Virus record (IMG/VR): IMGVR_UViG_3300002460_000024
Coordinates: 1-64,000 of that record
Length of the DNA stretch: 64,000 nucleotides
Origin: a virus
Strand: one strand, 5' to 3'
Position 1 is the stretch's first letter; every line of letters begins with the position of its first letter. The notes beneath the pieces were generated by a model. That model did not search any database. It was not told where the DNA came from and saw nothing but the letters and a program-made list of their open reading frames with translations. Shown here piece by piece: positions 3,641 through 38,287 of this stretch. A program made the position numbers and the translations under genes.

Positions 3641-4425
3641 AAATGAAAGCAATCAAATCAAACGGAGTATTATTTCTAATTGGAATGATCTTCACAGGCC
3701 TAATAGCGTTCACTGCCTTAAATGGTATTCCTTTCCCTAGTTTTTAGGGGCGACGCAATTAATGTCAAGCGGCTACCTTAATCGGAGCCGCTTTTCTAGG
3801 TACAAACCATTAAATAAACTCACCATAACAGCTATGGAAAAGAAGATAATACAGACAACAGTCGGAGAGAATATTACAGTTGATAGACGTGAAATATTAA
3901 TCGACGACTTATTACAATGGATTGAAAAGGCGAAAGCTGAGAAAGCAACTCATCTCGAATTATATGCCACCTATGACTGGGATGATATGGATATAGATAT
4001 ATGGGCGTATTATAAATATGAAGAAACCGAAACTCAATGCGCAGAACGGTTACAGCGTGAACAAGATTATAAAAAGCAGCAGATATTAGAAAAGCTTGCT
4101 AAAGAAAAAATATTGTATGAAGAATTAAAGAAAAAATTTGAAGCATAACCCCTAAAATCCCGTCGCCCCATGAAAAACTTCTTTTATATAGTCAAAGTAA
4201 TAGAGTCATGCAATCTGCCCATTCAATTGGAGGCCTGCAGAACTATTATAAGCTGGTACAAAGAGCCTCAAGGTCGTAAATTATTAATGAGCCGGTGGGA
4301 AGATAAACTACATAGGCTAGAGAATTATGATTTAAGGCAGAGAGTAGTTTAATTTGTGACGGGATTAATCTCGTCACCCCAAAAATAGTATACGTTCATT
4401 TATAGGCTGAGTAGTTTAACAATTG

Positions 4426-4486: not shown

Positions 4487-5197
4487 ATGCAGTATATAGC
4501 GTACAGGCGAGTTTCAACGGGCAAGCAAGCTAAATCCGGTCTGGGTTTGGAAGCTCAAGAGGCTGCAATTCAACAAATAATTAAACCGGATGACGAGATT
4601 CTATTTTCATTCACAGAGGCCGAAAGCGGAAAGAATGATAAAAGACCAGAGCTATTGAAGGCTATTGCAGCCTGTAAATTACATGGGGCGACGTTATTAA
4701 TCGCAAAACTGGACAGGTTGAGCCGCAATGCATCCTTTTTATTCACATTAAGAGACTCCGGACTTAAACTGTGTATAGCCGATATGCCCCAGGCCGACGA
4801 ATTCATGATAGGTATCATGGCTGTTATTGCTGACTGGGAAGGGAAAAGAATAAGAACCAGGATAAAAGAGGCCCTGAATGCCAAGAGGTCCAGGGGAGAG
4901 TCAATGGGCACCGTCGCAAACCTAACAGGCCGGACTATGGGTAACGTCGCCAATAAACAAAAATTCATTGAGCGCCTAAAGCCTTATAAATCTACCATTC
5001 TATACTTTATTAAGGAGGGCTGGACAAACGACCTGATCTTCAAAAGAATGCCCGAATTCCACCCAGATTTTAAAAGGCCCTTTTTGGATCGTGCGGTTAA
5101 GCATGTTAGAAAGGAATATGATGAGACGCAATTATTGTTGAAAACACCACAACATACAACACCACATATATGGGATTTTTCCCAAAAGGCTGAATAA
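4487..5197 (+). CDS. Serine recombinase (resolvase family)
   Basis: YRRVST catalytic Ser motif, ESGK..KRPEL, AKLDRLSRN. Confidence 0.92.
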   Translation: MQYIAYRRVSTGKQAKSGLGLEAQEAAIQQIIKPDDEILFSFTEAESGKNDKRPELLKAIAACKLHGATLLIAKLDRLSRNASFLFTLRDSGLKLCIADMPQADEFMIGIMAVIADWEGKRIRTRIKEALNAKRSRGESMGTVANLTGRTMGNVANKQKFIERLKPYKSTILYFIKEGWTNDLIFKRMPEFHPDFKRPFLDRAVKHVRKEYDETQLLLKTPQHTTPHIWDFSQKAE

Positions 5198-7344: not shown

Positions 7345-7497
7345 GGAAAGGCTGTCAATATGCACTTCGATAAAAAGGAATTTAACGCAGACGGCAACTA
7401 TGTACCGAAGAAAACTCCGGTTCTCGGTATGCGCCAAAGAGAGGGCCATGTTATTGCTAAAGGCATTGATACCCAATCTACACAAGAAATTAACTAA
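7345..7497 (+). pseudogene. IS1595-family (ISXO2-like) transposase fragment
   Basis: Reads GKAVNMHFDKK...KKTPVLGMRQREGHVIAK, resembling the GGKxxNxH...KTPVxGMxxRxG segment of IS1595 DDE transposases. Confidence 0.6.
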
Positions 7498-7630
7498 ATA
7501 ATTTAGATTATGAATACAGATGTAAAAACAGTAGAATTAAGACAGGGATGTAAAGAGATTGAATACGGCATTGAAACCCAATTTACACTAAATAAAAGCT
7601 AAATAATTTAGATTATGAATACAGATGTAA
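7462..7630 (+). repeat. Two copies (7462-7525, 7567-7630) of a ~64-bp repeat; third copy at 17412-17475
   Basis: GGCATTGAWACCCAATYTACAC...AAATAATTTAGATTATGAATACAGATGTAA. Confidence 0.9.
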
Positions 7631-9531: not shown

Positions 9532-10024
9532 GCTCGGTTACGACCCTACGGTTAAGCCCAAAGTTGCCGTCGCATATCAGCTTTACAACACCAGAGTAAA
9601 CAAACTAATAATAACAGGATCTTACCCATTATGCAAGGCAATGATGAAGAAAGAGCAGCAACTAAACCCCCTGAGCACATACAGAATCCTACCCGTTTAT
9701 ACGTAGCCCATTTAGAAGGCCATTCATTTCGTTGCATAAAAGCCTTAGCCCCCTATGATACTGATATGCCAAAAGGAATGGCTGATAAGATTTGCGACGC
9801 AAACGTAAGATCCGACATTTTAGTTACTCCAGCCGTCAAAACCTACCTCATAAAGCACTTTGAAATCGAGAATGAAAAAGAACTGAACCACCTGGCAAAG
9901 AAATCAATCCAAAAAGCACTTTTATTTTTGTATAATATATAATAAATTTAATGGGCAATCGTTAACTTTATATGAGATTAATTACGTCGCCCATACGATT
10001 TGTTGCCTGTTGTGGTGGCATTCG

Positions 10025-10118
10025 GGCTAATGGATTGGGGCTTAACGAAGTTTGCTTTATACCAAAATTAAAAAATAGAAAAATGATAAAGCAAATTTTG
10101 TTTAAGCCCGTGTTAGCC
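10025..10118. repeat. attC-like hairpin 1
   Basis: ggctaat...gggcttaacgaagtttgcttta / taaagcaaattttgtttaagccc...gttagcc; one extra base in the right arm. Confidence 0.8.
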
Positions 10119-10188
10119 GTCTGTTTTTGTTTTATTATTTTTTGAGAGGGGAGAAAAAAAGTTTAAAAATTTTATTTAAAAAATACTT

Positions 10189-10911
10189 ATGAAAAACAAT
10201 TTAGAAAAGTGGAATTACTACTTGGAGTTACTGAATGAAAAGGCAAGTGCTTTTATGGACACGATAAATCCATTAGTGCCAAGCATTTTTTACAAAGTAG
10301 AGTTGAACGGCAAAATAAATGACTGCACCGTTTTAAACAGGCACTATTCATTTGGATTATACTTTAACGGCAAGAAGCCAACGAATAAGGACATTGAAAA
10401 AATTGAAGCCGTTTTTAATAGCGAAATAGTTTTTACACCGAAGATGGCTTACTTTGATTACTCCTATGTATGGGGCATTTATGAAGGCAAAGAAAGTATA
10501 TCTAAAACGGCTATACACGTAAAAGATGTTTTTGAAAATAGGATTGCGTTTTTATCTTTTGCAGAGGCGGAAATAAAGGCGAAAGAAATTATAGAAAAAA
10601 ATGCAGAGGAAAAACTATTTAAAGAAACGCACAAGAAGGATGCTAATTATAAATATACTGAAAATGGATACAAGTTTTTAGGATGGCAAAATGGATGGAA
10701 GCACGTTTACTTTGATGCTGATGGAAATGTAACAGATGACAAAACGAAGCAAAAAACATTTGGCTACCTGACTGCCGATTATCCTGAATATGGAAAATGC
10801 AGAGAGCAAAAGCATAGAACAATTGAAGTAAGCCACAACCAAAGAGGAAGTGAGAATACAGTTAGTTGCCCGATTTGTATGATATACTGGAAATATGATT
10901 GCAGCGACTAA
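10189..10911 (+). CDS. Cassette cargo, hypothetical protein with C-terminal Cys/His cluster
   Basis: 240-aa ORF; C..H...CPIC. Confidence 0.7.
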   Translation: MKNNLEKWNYYLELLNEKASAFMDTINPLVPSIFYKVELNGKINDCTVLNRHYSFGLYFNGKKPTNKDIEKIEAVFNSEIVFTPKMAYFDYSYVWGIYEGKESISKTAIHVKDVFENRIAFLSFAEAEIKAKEIIEKNAEEKLFKETHKKDANYKYTENGYKFLGWQNGWKHVYFDADGNVTDDKTKQKTFGYLTADYPEYGKCREQKHRTIEVSHNQRGSENTVSCPICMIYWKYDCSD

Positions 10912-11224
10912 CCTCTTAATTTTTTAAAAATAGGTGAGGGCCAAAAACTATGGGCGGCCTTTAGCGCCAAAGCCTGTGTTGCCCATAGCCTTAAATCACG
11001 AAAAAATTGAGTATGAAACTAAATAGGAAAGTAACATTAGAGCCAAAGACCATTAACCTAAGAGTTGAAGATAGAATGCTTAGTATTAATTATCGAATAC
11101 GGGATGACATTACAGGAATTGGATTTGGTGATACTTGGGTTAATTTTACTCCTAGCGATAAGTTGATTGAAATATTAAAAACAGAAGTAAACGAAGCAAT
11201 TAAAAACTATAAAAAATAAACACA

Positions 11225-11578
11225 ATGGGAAATTTAATTAAACACGCAAAGTTTGAACTTGAACTAGCTGATATGTTCAATGAAAAAGGAGATTTTTACG
11301 GAGGCATGACCGCTGGTGCAGTTATGGAATTGATTAAGGTTTTTGAGAAACAAGGACATTCTGGTGGTTCGGCTCCAGGAGTAATTGCTTTGTTTTCAAA
11401 ACTAGCAAACTATGAAATAATATTTAATAGGATGAAATCAGAAATTGAAAAACAATTTGGAGTTAAAATAACAGAAGCTCCATTTACATATTTAAGTAAT
11501 GTAAAAGAAAACGAACTTATTTTATCATGCCAAAAAGATTACAATAATATGATAATGGCTGTATTGACCCCAAATTAA
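11225..11578 (+). CDS. Cassette cargo, phage hypothetical protein (QGHSGGSA motif)
   Basis: HAKFELE...ELIKVFEKQGHSGGSA; flanked by ORFs 11007-11219 and 11585-11794. Confidence 0.6.
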   Translation: MGNLIKHAKFELELADMFNEKGDFYGGMTAGAVMELIKVFEKQGHSGGSAPGVIALFSKLANYEIIFNRMKSEIEKQFGVKITEAPFTYLSNVKENELILSCQKDYNNMIMAVLTPN

Positions 11579-11882
11579 ATTTATATGAGCTTGATAGAAT
11601 CAACTATTTTTCACGGAACTAAATACTCATTTGATAAGAGTAAATTAATCTTCGTTGGCTTTTCAGAAAACGGTCTTAACCTTGTTTTTGAAACAGCAGA
11701 AGTTGAAATTACTATTACCGATATGAAAGACAGAGAGAGGCAGTACAAGGATATTATTAATGTATGGAAAAGCTACAAAGGTGATTTATTTTAATTTTTA
11801 AAAAGCGTGCAGGCCAAATTAAAAAAAGTACTAAAGAAACGAGAGGGTGAGTTTAGCTCCTACCGAAATTGCTGGTTATTCG

Positions 11883-11976
11883 GGCTAACCTCCGAGGCTT
11901 TGCGTCAGTTTTAAAAATACCAATGAAAAAAAACAGAAAAGACATTTTTAAAATTGCGTTAAAGCCGATGTTATGC
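11883..11976. repeat. attC-like hairpin 2
   Basis: ggctaac...ggctttgcgtcagttttaaaaat / atttttaaaattgcgttaaagcc...gttatgc. Confidence 0.8.
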
Positions 11977-12023
11977 TTAGTATTTTTTATCATTTTTTGT
12001 GCGAGGGCTTTACCTAACTAACT

Positions 12024-12461
12024 ATGAAAGACAGAAACTTACCACATTCGGACAATTGGGCGACACCGCCTTATGTTTACGATAAACTTAATGAGGAATA
12101 CAATTTCAATTTCGACCCATGCCCTTTGAAGCATGATATCACGAAATGGGACGGATTGGAAATTGAATGGAAGGAACGGAATTTTATTAACCCGCCTTAT
12201 TCAAAGGATCTAAAACCAAAATTCATTTTAAAGGCGGTTGATGAAATGAAGAAAGGAAAACTTTGCGTGTTATTACTGCCCGTTTCGACAAGCACAAAAC
12301 TATTCCATGATATCATCTTGGCGAACGCAACAGAGCCAGTAAAGTTTTTCAAGGGCAGAATTAAGTTTATTGGACATAATACGAAGGGAGAATTGGTAAG
12401 TAACAAAAGCCCGATGCACGATAGTATGTTAGTTGTATTCGATGGGCGGGAAAAAAAATGA
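12024..12461 (+). CDS. Phage DNA N6-adenine methyltransferase (Dam-type), cassette cargo
   Basis: WATP, FDPCP, NPPY, LLLPVSTST..FH, GRIKF. Confidence 0.88.
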   Translation: MKDRNLPHSDNWATPPYVYDKLNEEYNFNFDPCPLKHDITKWDGLEIEWKERNFINPPYSKDLKPKFILKAVDEMKKGKLCVLLLPVSTSTKLFHDIILANATEPVKFFKGRIKFIGHNTKGELVSNKSPMHDSMLVVFDGREKK

Positions 12462-12474
12462 TAAAAAATATTGA

Positions 12475-12641
12475 GCATAACTCCGAGGCTTTGCGCTGAA
12501 TTTCCTCCCTGCGGGAGATTCCGCTTACCAAGGGATGTGCGAAGGACGGAAGATTGAAAGCAGGGAGGAAATTCATTTTTTAAAAATAGGTGAGGGCCAA
12601 AAACTATGGGCGGGCCTTTAGCGCCAAAGCCTGTGTTGCCC
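12475..12641. repeat. attC-like hairpin 3 (long frame C)
   Basis: gcataac...aggctttgcgct / agcgccaaagcct...gttgccc; inner stem tgaatttcctccctgc/gcagggaggaaattca. Confidence 0.8.
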
Positions 12642-12683
12642 ATAGCCTTAAATGCTAGATAAATAAATTTAAATAACGATAAT

Positions 12684-13537
12684 ATGCAGTATAGTCCAAA
12701 ATTGAAAAAAGCAGCAGAAGAAATAAAAGCAATACTTACGAAGTATGATATTGCTGGTGTTGTATTATTACATACTCCGGGGCATAGTGAATACTTATTA
12801 CGATTAGACCCGTCTTATTCATGTGCTAATATGAATGAGAAAACAGGCGAAGTAAGATTAAAAGCTACCGAGGCATTGCATGGTAAAAAGAAACGTGACC
12901 AAATGTTAGAAGATACTACAAATATGATTGTTTGTTTATCGGACGTAACCGCTATGCAGGCCATGAATCTTATTGAACTTCGTAAATTACTTGAAACTAA
13001 ATTTGAAATAATAACACAGGATAACGGGCATACCACCCATGATACACAAAACAATTAAAACAAAAATTATGAATGAAAAACAAATGCTACAGTCCGCAGT
13101 AAATGAACTTCGTGGATTAAGAAAACAAAACGAAATTATGAAAGCTCGTTTAGATATGTTCGATACTATGACAGCAATATTGCACACAGATATTGCAAGG
13201 CAAAACGGAGATGCAATGCACCCTGATATTGTTTATGAAATTGATAAATATTTAACTAACTTAGAAAAAGAAGCCACCAATGAAACCAATTAAATTTCCA
13301 GAGGTTAATAAAACCTACGCAGAAAATCAACCTGAATATTTGCCGTTGCCAGTATTTAAAGCAGATACCCCACAAGGCGAATGTGTTTCTTGCTGGAAAC
13401 TTTCTTTTCGTGAAAGGATTAGAATATTATTTACAGGCAAGTTGTGGGTAAGTCTGCTTACATTTAATAAGCCACTTACTCCTTCTTATTTTACAACGAA
13501 GAAATCGGAAGTATTAACCTTTTCAAAAAATGAGTAG
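12684..13537 (+). CDS. Three-gene cassette cargo (124, 84 and 85 aa hypothetical phage proteins)
   Basis: Overlapping ORFs 12684-13058, 13039-13293, 13280-13537. Confidence 0.65.
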
Positions 13538-13657
13538 CATTTTTAAGGGGATTTTTAAAAAAAGCATAGCCTCGGAGGTTGCCCACAAAGGCGTATGGCC
13601 AAGCACAGTAAAGCAAACGTTTTTCAGTTTGCGATGTGGTTGCCGTTTTAAGGTTGT

Positions 13658-13809
13658 GGGCAACGGTTTCGTGTTGCCGAAGTTGATGGCGAGAAGAAGG
13701 AATAAAGGGGCCTTTAGCGCCAAAGGCAATGCGGGTTTATTCGTTCTTTAAAAGCCAGAAACAAGGTCAAACTTTCATCCCATCAATTTTGAGCAACACA
13801 TTGATAGGC
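13658..13809. repeat. attC-like hairpin 4 (long frame A), GAT core
   Basis: gggcaac...gtgttgccgaagttgatgg / ccatcaattttgagcaacac...gataggc. Confidence 0.82.
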
Positions 13810-13950
13810 TAAGTTTACCGGGGGAGTTGCAGATACCTTTAGAAAGTTTGTCACGAAACCGATAGGCTAAATTTAGGATGAGAGGTTTGAAAATTAATTG
13901 GCGAAATTTTGTAAAAATTTAAAAAGTAAACTAATAAATAAACGAAAAGT

Positions 13951-14250
13951 ATGGGATTATTCAGTAAAACACCTAAAGTAGAATTGCTACCGTTAGGCCA
14001 TAAAGTAGAATTAGGTACTCGATTTTGGAAAGTTTTTGAAAGCAAAGTTTATGAATGTCATGTTGCAAGACTTTCAATAAGCCGTTCTGATGAATTATTT
14101 TTATCGCAGAACCCAAGTAGTAATTATGATGAAACAAAGTATTTAATTCATACTATTTGCGACAAGCATGTTGGTTGGTTTCACGAAGAGGAAGTGGTTA
14201 AGATGATAAAGTTTAAAACAAAAAAAGAACTTTATGAAAGTGATAACTAA
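13951..14250 (+). CDS. Cassette cargo, hypothetical protein
   Basis: 99-aa ORF inside frame A. Confidence 0.65.
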   Translation: MGLFSKTPKVELLPLGHKVELGTRFWKVFESKVYECHVARLSISRSDELFLSQNPSSNYDETKYLIHTICDKHVGWFHEEEVVKMIKFKTKKELYESDN

Positions 14251-14336
14251 ACCTTTTAGCAGCTATGCTGCCCCGCCAATTCTTTTTTTAAACAGAGCAG
14301 CCGTGTGCGGTTTTGGGTTGTGGAGAGGTAAATTTA

Positions 14337-14415
14337 GCCTATCGTTGACGGGTATGCGTTCGGTTTTGCTCCAAAAAATAACACGGCAAAACTGACGACA
14401 TACCCGATGTTACAG
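14337..14415. repeat. attC-like hairpin 5
   Basis: gcctatc...cgggtatgcgttcggttttgc / gcaaaactgacgacatacccg...gttacag. Confidence 0.82.
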
Positions 14416-14469
14416 GCAGTTAAAAATGGCTAAACGAAAATTAATATAAACAACTAAAACAAAACAACT

Positions 14470-14754
14470 ATGTGTACAGTATCAATGATTGGAGACCACT
14501 TCAATGACAAATGGAAACAACCATTTTATCAGCAAACTTTTACCAACATTCCCGAAATTACGAAGGCGGAATTTGATGCACTCAAAAAGGAAGTTGAAGA
14601 AATGAAAGCATTGCTAAAGAGAGCAAAGTTATATGACGAAAAGAATGGAGAACCGAATTGCGAAATGGATGAGAAGATGACAATGCTTAGAAAATTTGCC
14701 GAAGCAGTTGGTATAAGTTTGGACGACATCATTAAGAAACCAGATGCCAAATAG
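14470..14754 (+). CDS. Cassette cargo, phage hypothetical protein (MCTVSMIGD start)
   Basis: 94 aa; the stop codon lies in the terminal inverted arm of the cassette. Confidence 0.75.
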   Translation: MCTVSMIGDHFNDKWKQPFYQQTFTNIPEITKAEFDALKKEVEEMKALLKRAKLYDEKNGEPNCEMDEKMTMLRKFAEAVGISLDDIIKKPDAK

Positions 14755-14768
14755 CCATTTTTTATTGC

Positions 14769-14898
14769 CTGTAACCGGACAAGCCTTTATTTAGTGCGGG
14801 CTTAAAAGCACTAAGCAACAATTAAAGATAAAAGATTATGGAAAGCACAAAAGTTGATAATAGCACAGAACCCGCATTGAATAAAGGCATTGTTAGCA
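14769..14898. repeat. attC-like hairpin 6
   Basis: ctgtaac...gcctttatttagtgcggg / cccgcattgaataaaggc...gttagca. Confidence 0.85.
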
Positions 14899-15074
14899 GC
14901 AGTACGGCATTAGAACCGAAAGTTGTTAATCACGGGAATGTGTTTGGAACAAAGAACTGGTACACATTTTATTGCCCACATTGTGGAAGCCAAATAACAA
15001 ACAGAAGTGCAAATTGCGAAGGAAGTTATCCAATTAAAGGATGTAATGGGGCAATAAAATGGAACGAGAAGTAG
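14838..15074 (+). CDS. Cassette cargo, small Zn-ribbon protein starting inside the hairpin loop
   Basis: CPHC...C...C; ATG at 14838 lies between the arms of hairpin 6. Confidence 0.7.
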   Translation: MESTKVDNSTEPALNKGIVSSSTALEPKVVNHGNVFGTKNWYTFYCPHCGSQITNRSANCEGSYPIKGCNGAIKWNEK

Positions 15075-15080
15075 TATTGC

Positions 15081-15915
15081 TGCTAACGGCTGCGGAATAA
15101 CAGCAGTTTCTTTAGTACGTTTTAATTTTAAGGTGGGATTTTAAAAATAAATTATATGAATGGAAAAAGTTTAAAAGTTCAGAAAGCTGAAAAGTTTGTA
15201 GATGATTTTATTAAATCAGAAGGGCATACGCCCACCTACAATGATGTAAAAGAATACATGGGCTTTAAGAGCAATGCTCAAGCCTATGGTATTTGTGCAA
15301 AATTCAGAGATAAAATGAAGGCAATTACTAAAAACGAAAAGAGAATACATATTGAGATTGATGATGAAAACCAAATTATGGTTAGCCGAAAAGGATTTAA
15401 CAACTACGAGGCACTTGGAGTTTTAGAGGCTACCGTTTTGATGGTTAAAAATGAAATATTAATAAGTATAAACAAGGGTAAATAATTATGAATCAGTTAG
15501 ACATAATAAAAGAAGAACTCGAAGATTGCTATGATTTATGGAGTAGATTTAGTTGTGACTGCCTTCATTATTATATGCTATATCTTGAAAAAAGGAAACG
15601 TCAATTAGAAATCATAAACAATTAAATGTATGTACTACCATAACACTACTAAAAACCTATTAAACGAATCAGAGTTTGAAGATTTCTACTGGAACTACGA
15701 GGAAGGGGATTCAATCTTTAAAACGGAACGTGGAAATGCAATACTTATACCAATGACCTACGAGGAGGTAATTGAAAAGGCAAAGCATGATAATATAGTC
15801 GAAGAATAGTTCTTTTAATTTTTAAAAAGCGGGATGGCCAAATTAAAAAAAGTACTAAAGAAACGAGAGGGTGAGTTTAGCTACTACCGAAATTGCTGGT
15901 TATTCAGTGTTAGCC
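15081..15915. repeat. attC-like hairpin 7 (long frame B) with a gene-containing loop
   Basis: tgctaac...gaataacagcagtttc (15095-15110) / gaaattgctggttattc (15889-15905)...gttagcc. Confidence 0.75.
15156..15485 (+). CDS. LexA-N-like winged-helix DNA-binding protein (cassette cargo)
   Basis: FIKSEGHTPTYNDVKEYMGFKS; followed by small ORFs 15488-15625 and 15630-15809. Confidence 0.6.
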   Translation: MNGKSLKVQKAEKFVDDFIKSEGHTPTYNDVKEYMGFKSNAQAYGICAKFRDKMKAITKNEKRIHIEIDDENQIMVSRKGFNNYEALGVLEATVLMVKNEILISINKGK

Positions 15916-16060
15916 TGAGTGCCATGCTAATAGGTGAACGCAAAGCTAAACGAACAAGGAGTTGGCTTATTCCGCAGCCGTTAGCCCGAATCGGGTTGGC
16001 GCAACAAAGTAAAGTCCTCCATTTTAGAGGACGATTTGTTGCCTGTTGTGGTGGCATTCG

Positions 16061-16211
16061 GGCTAACGGTTTCGTGTTGCCGAAGTTGATGGCGAGAAGA
16101 AGGAATAAAGGGGGCTGTGCGGCCAAAGGCTTGCGGGTTTATTCGTTCTTTAAAAGCCAGAAACAAGGTCAAACTTTCATCCCATCAATTTTGTGCAACA
16201 CATTGATAGGC
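16061..16211. repeat. attC-like hairpin 8 (second copy of frame A)
   Basis: Near-identical to 13664-13809 starting exactly at AAC. Confidence 0.85.
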
Positions 16212-16335
16212 GAAGTTTACCGGGGCCGTTGCAGATACCTAAAGAAAGTTTGTCACGAAACCGATAGGCTAAATTTAGGATGCGAGGTTTAAAAATTAAT
16301 TGGCGAAATTTTGAAAAAATTTAAAATTTAAATAT

Positions 16336-16871
16336 ATGAGTACAGAAAACATAGAACAATGCCCAGAGTTTCCATACTTCGGAGCCTCTTATCCTGATGC
16401 AAGATGTGTAAGTGGATATTTACACGATATGGATAGCTGTGATGAACATGGTAATTTATATGTAATGAGTGAAAGTCACCCATGCCCATTTTGTAATACA
16501 AAAGAATTTTTAAAAAACCAACGGGACAATGAGGCTGATATGACCAAAGTGAAAAAATGGATGGAAAATATTAAAAACGAATATAGCTATAAATAATTAT
16601 GAAAGACTTATTAAAGCTCCTATGGGAAAAGAAATGGGAAGCCGATGAAGAATATACTAAAAATGCAAATAGATATTCAGAAGGCAAAAGTGATGCTTTT
16701 TTATTTTGCATAAATGAAATTCAACATCCAAAATGTAAAGCGGATATTAAAGTTTTGGTGAATGGAAGGGTGGGTTATACTACCTCTGTTGTGGCTCATT
16801 CGGGGGGTATATACCCAGTATGGTTTGATGGTGGCGTGGAGTTTGTAAATGCTAAAGACGTAACCTTTTAA
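16336..16871 (+). CDS. Two-gene cassette cargo (86-aa Cys-rich and 90-aa hypothetical proteins)
   Basis: ORFs 16336-16596 and 16599-16871. Confidence 0.65.
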
Positions 16872-16948
16872 CAGCTATGCTGTACCGCCAATTCTTTTTT
16901 TTAACAGAGCAGCCGTGTGTGACTTTGGGTTGTGGGGAGGTAAATTTA

Positions 16949-17040
16949 GCCTATCATATATCTGTATTTATCACAATGCAACATATTTAAAAACAGTACG
17001 TTAAATACGGTATATTTCAAACAATGAAAAAACGATTGTA
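16949..17040. other. attI-like junction
   Basis: The last core site, gcctat^c, is followed by AT-rich DNA with no hairpin and then the recombinase ATG. Confidence 0.55.
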
Positions 17041-17436
17041 ATGAATATAGATAGATGGTCAGAGCAATTCGAGAAGGATATGCAAGTAATTCGTAATAGC
17101 CAAAGCACCCGTGATAATTATGGGTGCCAGGTTAAAATGTTTTTGGCATACTTTGAAAAACTCAACTACACTTCTCCTGAAAGAATTAATGCGGAAAAGA
17201 TAAAAGATTATTTGCTTACAAAAATTAGCAATAACAATCAGCGTCACGCCCATTCTGCTATAAAACATTTCTATAAAATTACAGTTCACCAGGAGCTTAA
17301 GTTTAGATTTATTCAATATGCGGAAAAAGAGAAGAGGCATCCCATAATTTTAAGCAGGGAGGAAACTAAAAGATGGTTTGAGGCGTGTACTAATGTAAAG
17401 CATAAGTGCATGGCATTGAAACCCAATTTACACTAA
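17041..17436 (+). pseudogene. Truncated tyrosine recombinase (integron-integrase/Xer-like N-terminal SAM domain)
   Basis: RNSQSTRDNY, IKDYL, SAIKHFYK, KRHPIILSREE, NVKHK; cut at 17412 by the 64-bp repeat before the catalytic R-H-R-Y residues. Confidence 0.85.
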
Positions 17437-17475
17437 ACAAAAAGCAAATAATTTAGATTATGAATACAGATGTAA
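17412..17475 (+). repeat. Third copy of the 64-bp GGCATTG repeat
   Basis: Matches 7567-7630; supplies the MNTDV start of ORF 17460-17708. Confidence 0.9.
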
Positions 17476-18084
17476 AAAAAGAGGTTAAAACAATAGAAGT
17501 GATTATACCACCAGACACAGACGAGGCAGTTCATATAATAAGATTAATTTTCCCCAATGGGTATAATGTTGCAATGACCCCAAATGCTTTAAAGGAGGTT
17601 ATAAATGAGCATTCCGAGAAATATGGGGTTATAATTGATGATGATATGAATAGAGAGAAATTTGATATGATTTTAAAAGAAAGACGCCTCTCCGCTTCTA
17701 AGGATTAGTCCTGTCTATTTCTTATTATTTCAATTCCATCGTATAGCTCTTGAAAGAATAATTCGGGGAGGATATGCACATACTTAAATATAATTTTTAC
17801 GTCATCTCCCTTCTCCTCTATCAAATCCGCATATTACATATTCAGCCGTGCCAATATCTATTTTATCCTCCTCAGAAATAAATAGAATATCCTCGTAAGG
17901 ATATGAGTATATGAATTCATGGAGAAGAGTTTTTGTAATCGTGTTGTAGTCGGGCCTCTCTTCAATAATTTTTAGATTATTAAAACGAATATTATGACTT
18001 TTACTTACAGAATCGAACGAATACTCGACAATGCTATCTGGGAATAAATTGCATATATTCTTTAAATAATTGTATATCAGTAAT

Positions 18085-21424: not shown

Positions 21425-21759
21425 ATTCGAATAATTTTATCAAATATAGGAAAATTTGGGGCGACGCAATTAAAGTATTATAATTTCTTTGCCCTGTGCA
21501 TCAAAAATATGACATGCATCATCCTTTTTTAGCCATTTCACCTCATAAAACTCCTTAATACTATTGATCGGAATAACCCCATACTTAACCATCAGTGACG
21601 AATAAATGATATAATCTGTGTTAAATTGAAGGGGAATTGTTTGGTTTTCGACCTTTATCATCTCATAGCTTACCCTTGTGGCCTTAATCACCAATTTCTT
21701 ACCACCATCATTAAAATCAATCAAGTATCCCTTTTTGTAATAAACTCTTTTCATATTAA

Positions 21760-34968: not shown

Positions 34969-35370
34969 TCATATCACTGCGAATATATCTGTTTGACTCA
35001 TTAATAAAAGATCTTTACCTTCTAAAGTAACCTCTACTCCAGCGTGTTTAGCGTATAAAACTACATCTCCTACTTCTAGGGGGGCGACGCCACCTTTCCC
35101 AGGACCCACAGCAACTACAAGCCCTTTCATTGGTTTTTCTCTTGCACTTTCTGGTAAGACTAACCCATTTCCGAGAGCTATTTCTCCTTCAATTGGTTCA
35201 ATAACTATCTTGTCGAATAAAGGTCGGGTTACGCCGGATGATTGACGTCGCCAATTCTCAGCAAACTCGTCTAACCCTAATGCGCCAACCTCAAACGTCG
35301 TTCCTGGTGCGCAGAGTACACTTAAATATTCTTCAAACTTCATTCTAATATTCTTTAGGTTTAGGATCAC
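34969..35370 (-). CDS. groES: GroES co-chaperonin with N-terminal extension
   Basis: RPLFDKIVIEP...GLVLPESAREKP..G.VVAVGPG...GDVVLYAKHAG. Confidence 0.92.
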   Translation of the reverse strand: MILNLKNIRMKFEEYLSVLCAPGTTFEVGALGLDEFAENWRRQSSGVTRPLFDKIVIEPIEGEIALGNGLVLPESAREKPMKGLVVAVGPGKGGVAPLEVGDVVLYAKHAGVEVTLEGKDLLLMSQTDIFAVI

Positions 35371-36934
35371 TTACAACACACTCCGTAGTTAAGAAAATAG
35401 CTGCAATAGATGAAGCATTCTCAAGGGCGCACCGACATACTTTTGTTGGGTCGATTACTCCGGCATCAAAAAGATTTTCGATCTTATCAGACTTTACATT
35501 AAAACCAATACCGTAATCGCCTTCAATAATTTCTTTTGCTATGGAATCAATTTGCTCTTTAGACTTTCCAGCATTGCGAAGTATCTGGTCAAACGGTTCT
35601 ATAATTGAACTTCGAACAATCAGGGCTCCGGTTAATTCGTCTCCAGTAATACCTAGTGTTGTGAAAAAATCTAAACTTTTCATAAATGCCGTACCACCTC
35701 CAGACAAATATCCTTCCTCATTCGCCGCCCTGGTAGCACACAAAGCGTCATCAATACGATCTTTTTTCTCTGTAGCTTCTGTTTGGGTGATGGCTCCTAC
35801 TTTTAGCGACGCGATCTTTCCTATCATCTTTGCTAGTCTACTTTTTAACTTAGCTGCCTGGACCTCGTTAGCCCCCTCAATTTCGGTACGGATCTCGTCG
35901 CACCTCTCGGTAACAGATAGCCCATCACCGGCCCCATTCACAAATAATGTTGAATGAGCATCCACAATAACTTTCTCCGCACTACCACAATCTTTTAAAG
36001 TTGCCTTTTCAATTGTTCGTCCTGCGGCATCAGAGATAAAAGTAGCTCCAGTTAAAACACAAATATCTTCAAGTGCCCGTTGGCGATCATCCCCGTATTC
36101 GGGAGCTAGCACCACGCATAAATTAATTTTGGCTTCCTTCATATTACCGTAAATTAACTGCAAAGCCTCGCCCTCAATCCGATCTACAATCAATAAAATA
36201 GGCTTTGGTTGGTTTACCGCTTTTTCTAAAAACGGCAATAACTCTTTATATGTAGATAGTTTTTTATCGGTGACGAGAATAATCGGGTGTTCAAATTCAC
36301 AGGTACGTCTTTTTGTGTTGATATAAATAGGATGCATTAATCCACGATCAATCTTCATTCCATTCACTATCTCTACGTAGGTTTCATGGGTTTTTGAATC
36401 GGTGACGTTAATTTCCCCTTCTTTACCTACCTGAGTGAAGGCGTCGGCAATAAGTTTTCCTATTTCGGGATCGTTATTGGCCGATATGGTAGCAATTTGT
36501 ATTAATGTTTCCTGGCTGTCTACATCTTTTGATAATTCTTTTAGCCTTTTTACGACGGCATCTGTAGCCTTCTCAATTCCTTTTTTAAGGTCCACTGGAT
36601 TGGCGCCTTCGTCGATAGCCTTTAGTCCAGCGGTGATGATGGCTTGAGCAAGAACAGTGCTACAAGTGGTCCCATCTCCGGCATCGGCTAATGTTTTAAA
36701 GGCCACCTCCTTAATTAGGGTGGCTCCCATATTTTGAATTGGCTCTACTAAAGTGATTCCTTTTGCTACAGTAGCTCCATCTTTTGAGATGTGAACAGGT
36801 CCGTAACCGTTGCCTATTAAGACATTCCGACCACCAAATCCCATTGTAACTTTAATTGCGTCGGCCACAATATCCACTCCTATTTTTACTTTGTCTCTAC
36901 CTTCCTTGTTTTGAGTAACGTTTTTAAATGACAT
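35345..36934 (-). CDS. groEL: GroEL chaperonin
   Basis: KDGATVAK, AGDGTTCS, GVIDPTKV; lacks the GGM tail. Confidence 0.97.
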   Translation of the reverse strand: MSFKNVTQNKEGRDKVKIGVDIVADAIKVTMGFGGRNVLIGNGYGPVHISKDGATVAKGITLVEPIQNMGATLIKEVAFKTLADAGDGTTCSTVLAQAIITAGLKAIDEGANPVDLKKGIEKATDAVVKRLKELSKDVDSQETLIQIATISANNDPEIGKLIADAFTQVGKEGEINVTDSKTHETYVEIVNGMKIDRGLMHPIYINTKRRTCEFEHPIILVTDKKLSTYKELLPFLEKAVNQPKPILLIVDRIEGEALQLIYGNMKEAKINLCVVLAPEYGDDRQRALEDICVLTGATFISDAAGRTIEKATLKDCGSAEKVIVDAHSTLFVNGAGDGLSVTERCDEIRTEIEGANEVQAAKLKSRLAKMIGKIASLKVGAITQTEATEKKDRIDDALCATRAANEEGYLSGGGTAFMKSLDFFTTLGITGDELTGALIVRSSIIEPFDQILRNAGKSKEQIDSIAKEIIEGDYGIGFNVKSDKIENLFDAGVIDPTKVCRCALENASSIAAIFLTTECVVSDPKPKEY

Positions 36935-38076: not shown

Positions 38077-38287
38077 ATAATGATATAAGCCTCAAATATA
38101 GAAATTTACATCACTTATACAATAAAATGTTGTTAGTATCGTTGGCGACGAGATTAATCCCGTAACCCAAACCAATATAACCTCTTTTCTGTCTCTCTTA
38201 TTTCTTTAACAGAGTTCCTTCTTATTCGCTGGAGTTTTAACCAATCAAAATACTCTTTGAAGCTGCCGAAGGATTGGGTTTGCTTCG

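Follow-up and report, generated by a model that had tools for sequence, protein, structure and literature searches.

Can the hairpin loop of an attC-like recombination site itself carry genes? The question is raised by IMGVR_UViG_3300002460_000024, a single phage contig of 74,834 bp (GC ~37%) from a phage present in groundwater and soil metagenomes, of which we analysed the first 64 kb (the window). Between ~9.9 and 17.0 kb, its plus strand holds an array of small open reading frames (ORFs) with ten structured intergenic regions between them. For one unit of this array (15087–16066, unit X), an initial annotation had proposed that an attC-like site encloses three genes in its loop and that the usual cargo position holds only structured non-coding DNA. 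Our analysis bears out this arrangement and points, with moderate confidence, to unit X being one cassette in an array of integron-like gene cassettes, with its genes in the attC-like loop.

Complementary arms enclose the genes of unit X

The module at 15082–15128, to the left of the genes, is complementary to three places to their right, 15840–15864, 15889–15905 and 15967–15985. At the first of these, 15106–15118 pairs with 15852–15864 at 13 of 13 positions and 15120–15128 with 15840–15848 at 9 of 9, with one G.A mismatch between the two blocks (22/23 overall); at the second, 15095–15110 (GAATAACAGCAGTTTC) is complementary to 15889–15905 (GAAATTGCTGGTTATTC) with one extra base and one G.T pair. 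Both pairings had been claimed from the start and were confirmed, as was the enclosed stretch of ~700 bp, which measures 711 nt and contains three ORFs (15156–15809) of 109, 45 and 59 aa. GCTAAC (15082–87) also matches GTTAGC (15909–14). The best partner, however, is the third place: 15082–15100 pairs with 15967–15985 at 19 of 19 positions, the longest exact inverted repeat in the 74.8-kb genome. The left-arm piece 15106–15128 is present in a single copy in the genome. The complementarity of the unit X arms is real and far above chance.

Folding of 15070–16075 (~1 kb) predicted pairing of 15088–15104 with 15961–15979 (p mostly 0.5–0.85) and of 15106–15128 with 15840–15864 (p mostly 0.6–1.0), and masking 15961–15991 cost 34 kcal/mol. 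The minimum free energy structure of the linear RNA pairs the left arm with part (15967–15979) of the anti-junction, the sequence that complements the end of the unit joined to its own start. In these models, the thermodynamically preferred partner of the first 19 nt of the left arm is 15967–15985, not 15889–15905. The anti-junction copy was present as annotated but had been listed only as such, whereas its 15967–15985 part is in fact the strongest partner and out-competes in silico the originally assigned 15889–15905. Duplex energies computed between whole intergenic regions scale with length, which made their matrix uninformative.

Unit X is laid out as core, left L arm, leader, three genes, right L arm, GTT box, anti-junction, small hairpin and unit end (Table 1), with a 140-nt non-coding tail, including the anti-junction, after the GTT box. 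In this layout, the L arms close a loop that corresponds to the variable terminal loop of an attC-like site, and the genes lie inside it; the usual cargo position, 15909–16067, is structured and non-coding, as had been noted. The units that we call Dam, d, A1 and A2 are laid out as core, L arms with a small loop, GTT box, anti-junction (where present), leader, gene and unit end, and composite unit b carries genes between its GTT box and its anti-junction.

Such pairing is a property of the array as a whole. An inverted repeat brackets each of its gene blocks. Across the 74.8-kb genome, nearly all exact inverted repeats that reach 15 nt are confined to the 10–17-kb array; the exceptions are a T-rich run, a genome-wide motif (one copy) and the pair 8348/11199, which has only one arm in the array. 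The mismatches in plus-strand stems across the array amounted to at least 9 G.T and 0 A.C, which suggests selection for pairing of the plus strand, whether in single-stranded DNA or in RNA. A transposon or miniature inverted-repeat transposable element with terminal inverted repeats was considered and rejected: the arms differ from unit to unit, no transposase is present, and the repeats run into a shared core rather than target duplications. An invertible segment was likewise rejected, each arm pair being different.

The same frame surrounds a different gene in a related contig

A metagenome scan with the 19-mer arm found a single related contig, L001 (2,587 nt); the other match, L002, lay in unrelated coding DNA and was due to chance. 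Over 900 nt (10105–11004), L001 matches the window at 99.7% identity; beyond this stretch it carries different units, and three modules of the window recur in it at 95–96% identity (13515–13668, 15082–15159 and 15812–16061). The last two place both arms in the same arrangement as in unit X (left module 96%, right module 95% identical), and the sole change in the right arm yields a G.T pair. Homology of the left arm runs from exactly G15082 to the start codon, and that of the right module starts just past the stop codon. Between the arms, L001 carries one 109-aa ORF unrelated to ORF1, the first ORF of unit X, compared with three ORFs in the window, and its 19-mers are 540 nt apart compared with 866 nt. 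The search for homologous frames with different loops, which the initial annotation had suggested, was thereby successful, and the same frame around a different gene makes the gene-filled loop look like a real, swappable cargo slot. Elsewhere in L001, a gene at 1128–1664 (−) for a 178-aa SPFH/Band 7 protein (Pfam E=5e-19) stands where the window has three small genes, the Dam unit and three more genes. We do not regard the 152-aa ORF at 15834–16292 of the window as a gene, because a 1-nt indel disrupts its frame in L001 and its ATG is missing from the copy of this module at 11789–11881.

A second hairpin family recurred in the same two contigs. The window carries at 10026–10118 (+) a 93-nt hairpin with GGCTAAT...GTTAGCC boxes, 6-nt and 2-nt spacers and an empty, 25-nt loop; the homologous hairpin of L001 has a 175-nt loop with the start and 48 codons of an ORF and forms the L arms of the unit that precedes the unit-X-like frame. 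Five compensatory pair changes separate the empty from the loaded hairpin, and a bulged T and two G.T pairs are common to both. Gene-filled loops in two site families, with the pairing kept, argue that genes between arms are a recurring, selected arrangement. By eye, the empty loop (10061–10085) resembles the leader and ATG of the L001 loop gene, which would mean loss of a gene rather than loading, and the empty loop may be a deletion product. The proposal that cargo can be loaded into the loop was thus supported in respect of the arrangement, by the common frame with different cargo and by the empty and loaded pair, but not in respect of a loading mechanism, as the swap runs from start codon to stop codon and not from core to core.

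These comparisons bear on another account of such a long loop, a classical integron attC that was interrupted by a 700-bp foreign insertion and is hence dead. The site does have AAC...GTT boxes, an asymmetric spacer and imperfect arms, and integrase-less attC clusters (CALINs) occur in virulent phages (Qi et al. 2023, PMC9892861). We nevertheless consider an interruption very improbable, because the gene-filled arrangement is kept with other cargo in L001, where the second family is loaded too, the boxes fit GTTRRRY/RYYYAAC only partly, IntI is missing, the gene direction is opposite to that of classical cassettes, and neither a transposase nor insertion-sequence ends lie inside.

A conserved frame could also reflect a design at the RNA level, which we regard as rather unlikely. 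The early region would then be one long transcript whose long-range stems direct cleavage, by RNase III or another nuclease at TAA↓C (the arrow marks the inferred cut or crossover), or protect mRNA ends, with genes being swapped by ordinary recombination between conserved untranslated frames. Several features fit such a design: the G.T imperfections all lie on the coding (mRNA) strand, the 1-kb RNA fold has 19–23-bp stems around genes, right arms overlap stop codons and left arms lie 25–55 nt before start codons, cargo swaps run exactly from start to stop codon, and the terminator-like stem-loop at 16014–16032 has compensatory changes (between the window and L001, GTCCTCC/GAGGAC versus GCTATCC/GATAGC). 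On the other side, no RNA family was recognized: Rfam 15 gave no match at gathering thresholds in the window, and in 9800–17600 only two chance-level snoRNA matches (E ≥0.1). The position of DNA breakpoints, described below, also counts against this design.

Unit junctions share a core and a hairpin permutation

Nine unit junctions, aligned where copies stop matching, share the sequence (T/C)ATTnnnnC(T)AA↓C. The breakpoints of copies within the window and of homology with L001 fall at such cores (10030, 13663, 14342, 15082–86, 16066 and 16954), and in five module comparisons they lie ≤1 nt from (A/T)A↓C or AT↓C. Four units (A1, A2, X and a composite at 11889–13663) each contain an internal sequence exactly complementary to the junction of the unit's end with its own start, over 24 nt for 13664–14342, 24 nt for 16067–16954, 25 nt for 15087–16066 and 21 nt for the composite; none was found in 299/300 random cut pairs. 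An identical 24-mer, CACGAAACCGATAGGCTAAATTTA, occurs at 13852–13875 and 16254–16277 (+) in two units with unrelated cargo, in each case as the exact complement of that unit's own end–start junction. When the non-coding parts were joined end to start, a single long hairpin formed in four units (138 nt in Dam and 113 nt in d). A hairpin circularly permuted around its gene is the footprint expected where a circle has integrated, in the manner of Campbell, within one of the arms.

An RNA-level design leaves much of this unexplained, namely why DNA breakpoints, between both paralogous copies and genomes, coincide to the nucleotide within a conserved core, why the ends and starts of units abut without gap or overlap on the internal complement, and why a recombinase gene stands at the array end. 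The hairpin permutation, a classic footprint of Campbell-type integration, points in the same direction.

The intergenic regions are also a mosaic of modules, each in two copies and belonging to at least five module families (Table 1). Such a mosaic is what one would see if the units were recombination scars with no dedicated system behind them, in which regulatory pieces resembling the promoter(early) stem-loops (PeSLs) of T4-type phages were shuffled by homologous or microhomology recombination; the inverted repeats would then be by-products of inverted duplications, and the site would have no function as a unit. The right-arm module that stands alone at 11789–11881 and the Erf-like annealing protein encoded by the phage (22743–23936) are in keeping with such scars, and PeSL-mediated shuffling with mini-circles is documented in T4-type phages (Arbiol et al. 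2010, PMC2839356). We think this explanation unlikely: through five compensatory changes the arms have stayed paired whether the loop between them is empty or loaded, the excess of G.T over A.C (at least 9 to 0) indicates strand-specific selection on pairing, and exact junction complements of 21–25 nt occur in four units. Moreover, each unit has its own arms rather than a single PeSL-like repeated motif, and neither sigma-70-type promoter-like sites (32 vs 27.9 expected) nor terminator-like sites (5 vs 5.5) were enriched relative to shuffles.

A Xer-like recombinase gene ends the array

The array ends with an ORF at 17041–17436 (+) that encodes only the N-terminal SAM-like domain of a tyrosine recombinase. 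This gene is cut after codon ~122 at a 64-nt repeat (17412–17475; also at 7462–7525 and 7567–7630), in which one small ORF ends and the next begins (MNTDV...). An intact 279-aa recombinase, P0005, belongs to the same 90% cluster and is found on other public contigs (8.7-kb contigs). P0005 aligns end to end with XerA (5hxy), whereas its alignment with IntI4 (2a3v) is split in two, with 25 query residues opposite 68 IntI4 residues. All NCBIfam curated scores were below their cut-offs; on its alignments, the recombinase is Xer-like. On the minus strand, the sites read in the classical order and the recombinase gene diverges from the array, as in integrons; the genes run the opposite way. The nearest cellular relative of the recombinase is in a Cyclobacteriaceae metagenome-assembled genome (MAG); that MAG (L003, 34% identical recombinase) was rejected as a relative of the array, as the gene lies in an ordinary chromosomal context with no array.

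A cassette model and the points against it

In the integron-like model that we favour, the cassettes would exist, or would have existed, as circles; with the plus strand folded, a tyrosine recombinase would exchange one strand at TAA↓C and so integrate them. The candidate enzyme would be the small Xer-like protein whose gene stands at the array end, intact (279 aa) in relatives and truncated here. In the circle, the stem 15909–15924/16052–16067, or alternatively 15967–15991 paired with the junction, would set the L arms side by side, so that the 711-nt loop need not prevent folding. Within the constant frame, cargo would be exchanged from start codon to stop codon. Going further, and more tentatively, we can picture unit X as a recombination site that is recognized by its structure and stays functional although its terminal loop holds an entire operon, its constant ~330-nt frame serving as a reusable scaffold that receives different genes from start codon to stop codon. 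This would amount to a natural route of cassette genesis, operated in phages with a minimal Xer-like recombinase that has no IntI domain, for the trade in accessory and counter-defence genes. To our knowledge, cassette genesis is an unexplained step for integrons.

Several observations weigh against the cassette model. The comparison rests on one relative of 2.6 kb, L001. Breakpoints at shared cores of 7–8 nt could arise by microhomology-mediated recombination, and the cargo swaps have their limits at start and stop codons rather than at cores. The pairing of 15095–15110 with 15889–15905 was not chosen in the 1-kb fold, even when 15961–15991 was masked. The G.T bias fits RNA folding equally well, because the plus strand is the mRNA strand too. 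The IntI-specific insert (~43 residues) is absent from the P0005 alignment, and the truncation of the recombinase in this genome suggests that the array may be a fossil here. Finally, the right-arm module also stands without the left arm at 11789–11881, as a 96% copy of 15813–15905, and the arms, which the initial annotation had treated as belonging together and which do occur together in L001, can therefore occur apart within this genome.

If arms do recombine around a gene-bearing loop of 711 nt, the rule that cargo lies beside an attC-type site would not be general, and the variable loop would be a second cargo slot. The natural pairs described here, one frame with two cargos and one hairpin family both empty and loaded, are ready substrates for a recombination assay. 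The phage would carry its accessory genes, which include a Dam methylase and a Tad3-like Thoeris inhibitor, on an integron-like device with a simple Xer-type enzyme, and the array has a bearing on the exchange of counter-defence genes between phages and on the making of cassettes.

Cargo genes and genomic context

The initial annotation had called ORF1 LexA-N-like. Its match to Pfam LexA_DNA_bind (E=0.004, 17 bits) is below the cut-off of 23.7; an AlphaFold model (AF2) of low confidence (pLDDT 62) showed the order H-H-H-hairpin-H, which leaves a winged helix as a possible fold. ORF1 was found on 15 public contigs, and no homologue beyond its own 90% cluster was detected among 5.8 billion proteins. 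Elsewhere in the array, a 117-aa ORF at 11225–11578 (+) matches Pfam Tad3, a type I Thoeris inhibitor (E=8.5e-15, 55 bits; cut-off 27), 12024–12461 encodes a Dam methylase, and 16336–16596 has a weak Lar-like match. Together, these three matches suggest that the array carries accessory or counter-defence genes. On either side of the Dam unit stands a direct repeat of 15 nt, TCCGAGGCTTTGCG preceded by a C, at 11890–11904 and 12482–12496 (+). The unit after Dam begins with the same letters as Dam, which would fit an insertion of the Dam cassette at the head of that unit.

Table 1. Parts of unit X and duplicated modules of the array (window coordinates; ↓, inferred crossover)
Feature	Position	Strand	Remarks
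Left core GCTAA↓C	15082–15087	+	Inferred crossover 15086/15087; end of upstream unit and first base of unit X; L001 homology starts exactly at 15082; motif as at eight other junctions
Spacer GGCTGCG	15088–15094	+	Unpaired in attC-like reading, paired in 15967–15985 reading; from sequence and fold
Left arm: L' 15095–15110 and B 15106–15128	15095–15128	+	Complementary to 15889–15905 and 15840–15864; identical in L001
Leader to start codon	15129–15155	+	Conserved frame; 96% identity with L001 up to ATG
Cargo ORF1, 109 aa	15156–15485	+	Possible winged-helix DNA-binding protein
Cargo ORF2, 45 aa	15488–15625	+	No family match
Cargo ORF3, 59 aa	15630–15809	+	No family match; exact sequence on 14 public contigs
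Right-arm module: B' 15840–15864, local hairpin 15851–15885, L'' 15889–15905	15813–15905	+	Pairs with left arm; conserved in L001
First GTT box (GTTAGCC...)	15909–15924	+	Complementary to unit end 16052–16067 (14 Watson-Crick and 2 G.T pairs)
Anti-junction	15967–15991	+	Exact complement (25/25) of unit end 16056–16066 joined to start 15087–15100; identical in L001
Small stem-loop between anti-junction and unit end	16014–16032	+	Terminator-like in both directions; stem rebuilt in L001
Right core ...CATTCGGGCTAA↓C	16052–16067	+	Inferred crossover 16066/16067; end of unit X and first base of next unit; copy 9995–10030 ends here, copy from 13662 begins here
Duplicate module	9995–10030 = 16031–16066		
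Duplicate module	10919–10996 = 12575–12653		
Duplicate module	11789–11881 = 15813–15905		
Duplicate module	13662–13924 = 16065–16326		
Duplicate module	14250–14343 = 16862–16955		

The leaders have no Shine-Dalgarno sequences (judged by eye), which, together with the Cyclobacteriaceae origin of the nearest cellular relative of the recombinase, hints at a Bacteroidota host. The phage lacks a close relative in GenBank: the phage records there contained no DNA match to 13500–17500 and no tblastn match to ORF1. IMG/VR, where the record of the window itself may have been masked, gave no match when queried with four DNA patterns and three proteins. A motif, GGYGACGnnATTAAT, occurs genome-wide in both orientations, often at gene boundaries (9972–9990, 3749, 4356–4378, 21455–21470, 38144–38166 and many more), with one copy at the head of the cassette array, and could be a phage promoter or regulator site. 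A 236-aa serine recombinase of resolvase/invertase type is encoded upstream of the array at 4487–5197 (+), with weak, N-terminal NCBIfam matches. A GroEL-type chaperonin gene lies at 35345–36934 (−) (PHROG 5725, E=1e-141); its product is 43–46% identical to those of Bacteroides and other large phages, and its matches among GenBank phages are only distant. The start of the contig (window 1–110) and its end (genome 74738–74834) carry the same 6-/12-nt periodic GCCGTA/GCCGTC repeat; the genome is probably circular or terminally redundant, with the assembly broken within a repetitive gene.

Comparison with known systems

In the processing stems of 16S and 23S rRNA operons, flanks that pair over ~20 bp or more surround stable RNAs and serve as RNase III substrates. 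Unit X resembles these operons in that sequences before and after a long segment pair and enclose it, and flank duplexes of about this length are present in its predicted RNA fold (15088–15104/15961–15979 and 15106–15128/15840–15864). It differs in that the enclosed genes code for proteins and that DNA breakpoints coincide with the ends of the stems. The pdif modules of Acinetobacter plasmids are genes bounded by inverted XerC/XerD sites with one 28-bp consensus at every boundary; gene modules flanked by inverted repeats and a Xer-type link are common to both, whereas in the phage array the arms vary by unit and only a short core is shared. In the literature, we found no description of an integron-like Xer-type system in Bacteroidota or their phages.

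The PeSLs of T4-type phages (PMC2839356; Comeau et al. 2014, PMC4122927) are likewise small non-coding cassettes and, in the shuffling of genes, functional analogues of the array units; they lie between the accessory genes of a hyperplastic region, where they mark points of gene gain, loss and replacement between close relatives, and circles have been proposed as intermediates. However, a PeSL is one conserved motif of promoter and terminator that is recombined by homology, and no such repeated sigma-70 promoter and terminator motif was found here; the phage array has own arms for each unit, a common 12-nt core, permuted hairpins and a neighbouring recombinase gene.

The closest comparison is with integrons, their attC arrays, CALINs and the uniform Vibrio cholerae repeats (VCRs) of the chromosomal integron of that species. 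The site of unit X is not a classical attC, and membership of the integron family fails on enzyme and size. Instead of an IntI-clade integrase with the additional domain, the recombinase is Xer/XerA-like, of 279 aa, lacks the ~43-residue IntI insert and is truncated in this genome. Instead of a compact hairpin of 57–141 nt beside an ORF, the site spans 834 nt (15082–15915) with three ORFs between its L arms. The genes run against classical cassette polarity, and the full consensus RYYYAAC/GTTRRRY fits the boxes of unit X only in part. When classical attC sites are delivered single-stranded, their terminal loop is dispensable and its removal has little effect (PMC2727003). Start and end of classical cassettes are also complementary, over 6–7 nt, compared with 13–29 nt in this array, which in addition has extra anti-junction copies. 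The right L arm has one extra base, and homologous hairpins retain a bulged T, a pattern that RNA folding would also give. The likeness to integrons nevertheless extends to many details: tandem small genes in the same direction, imperfect hairpins with a bulged base, AAC...GTT triplets in paired R boxes with unpaired, asymmetric spacers (7 nt, GGCTGCG, and 3 nt, AGT), a unit start complementary to its own far end, an inferred crossover AA↓C on the folding strand, a tyrosine recombinase gene at one end that is divergent from the polarity of the sites, a methyltransferase among the cargo and, as with VCRs, one site that accompanies unrelated cargo.

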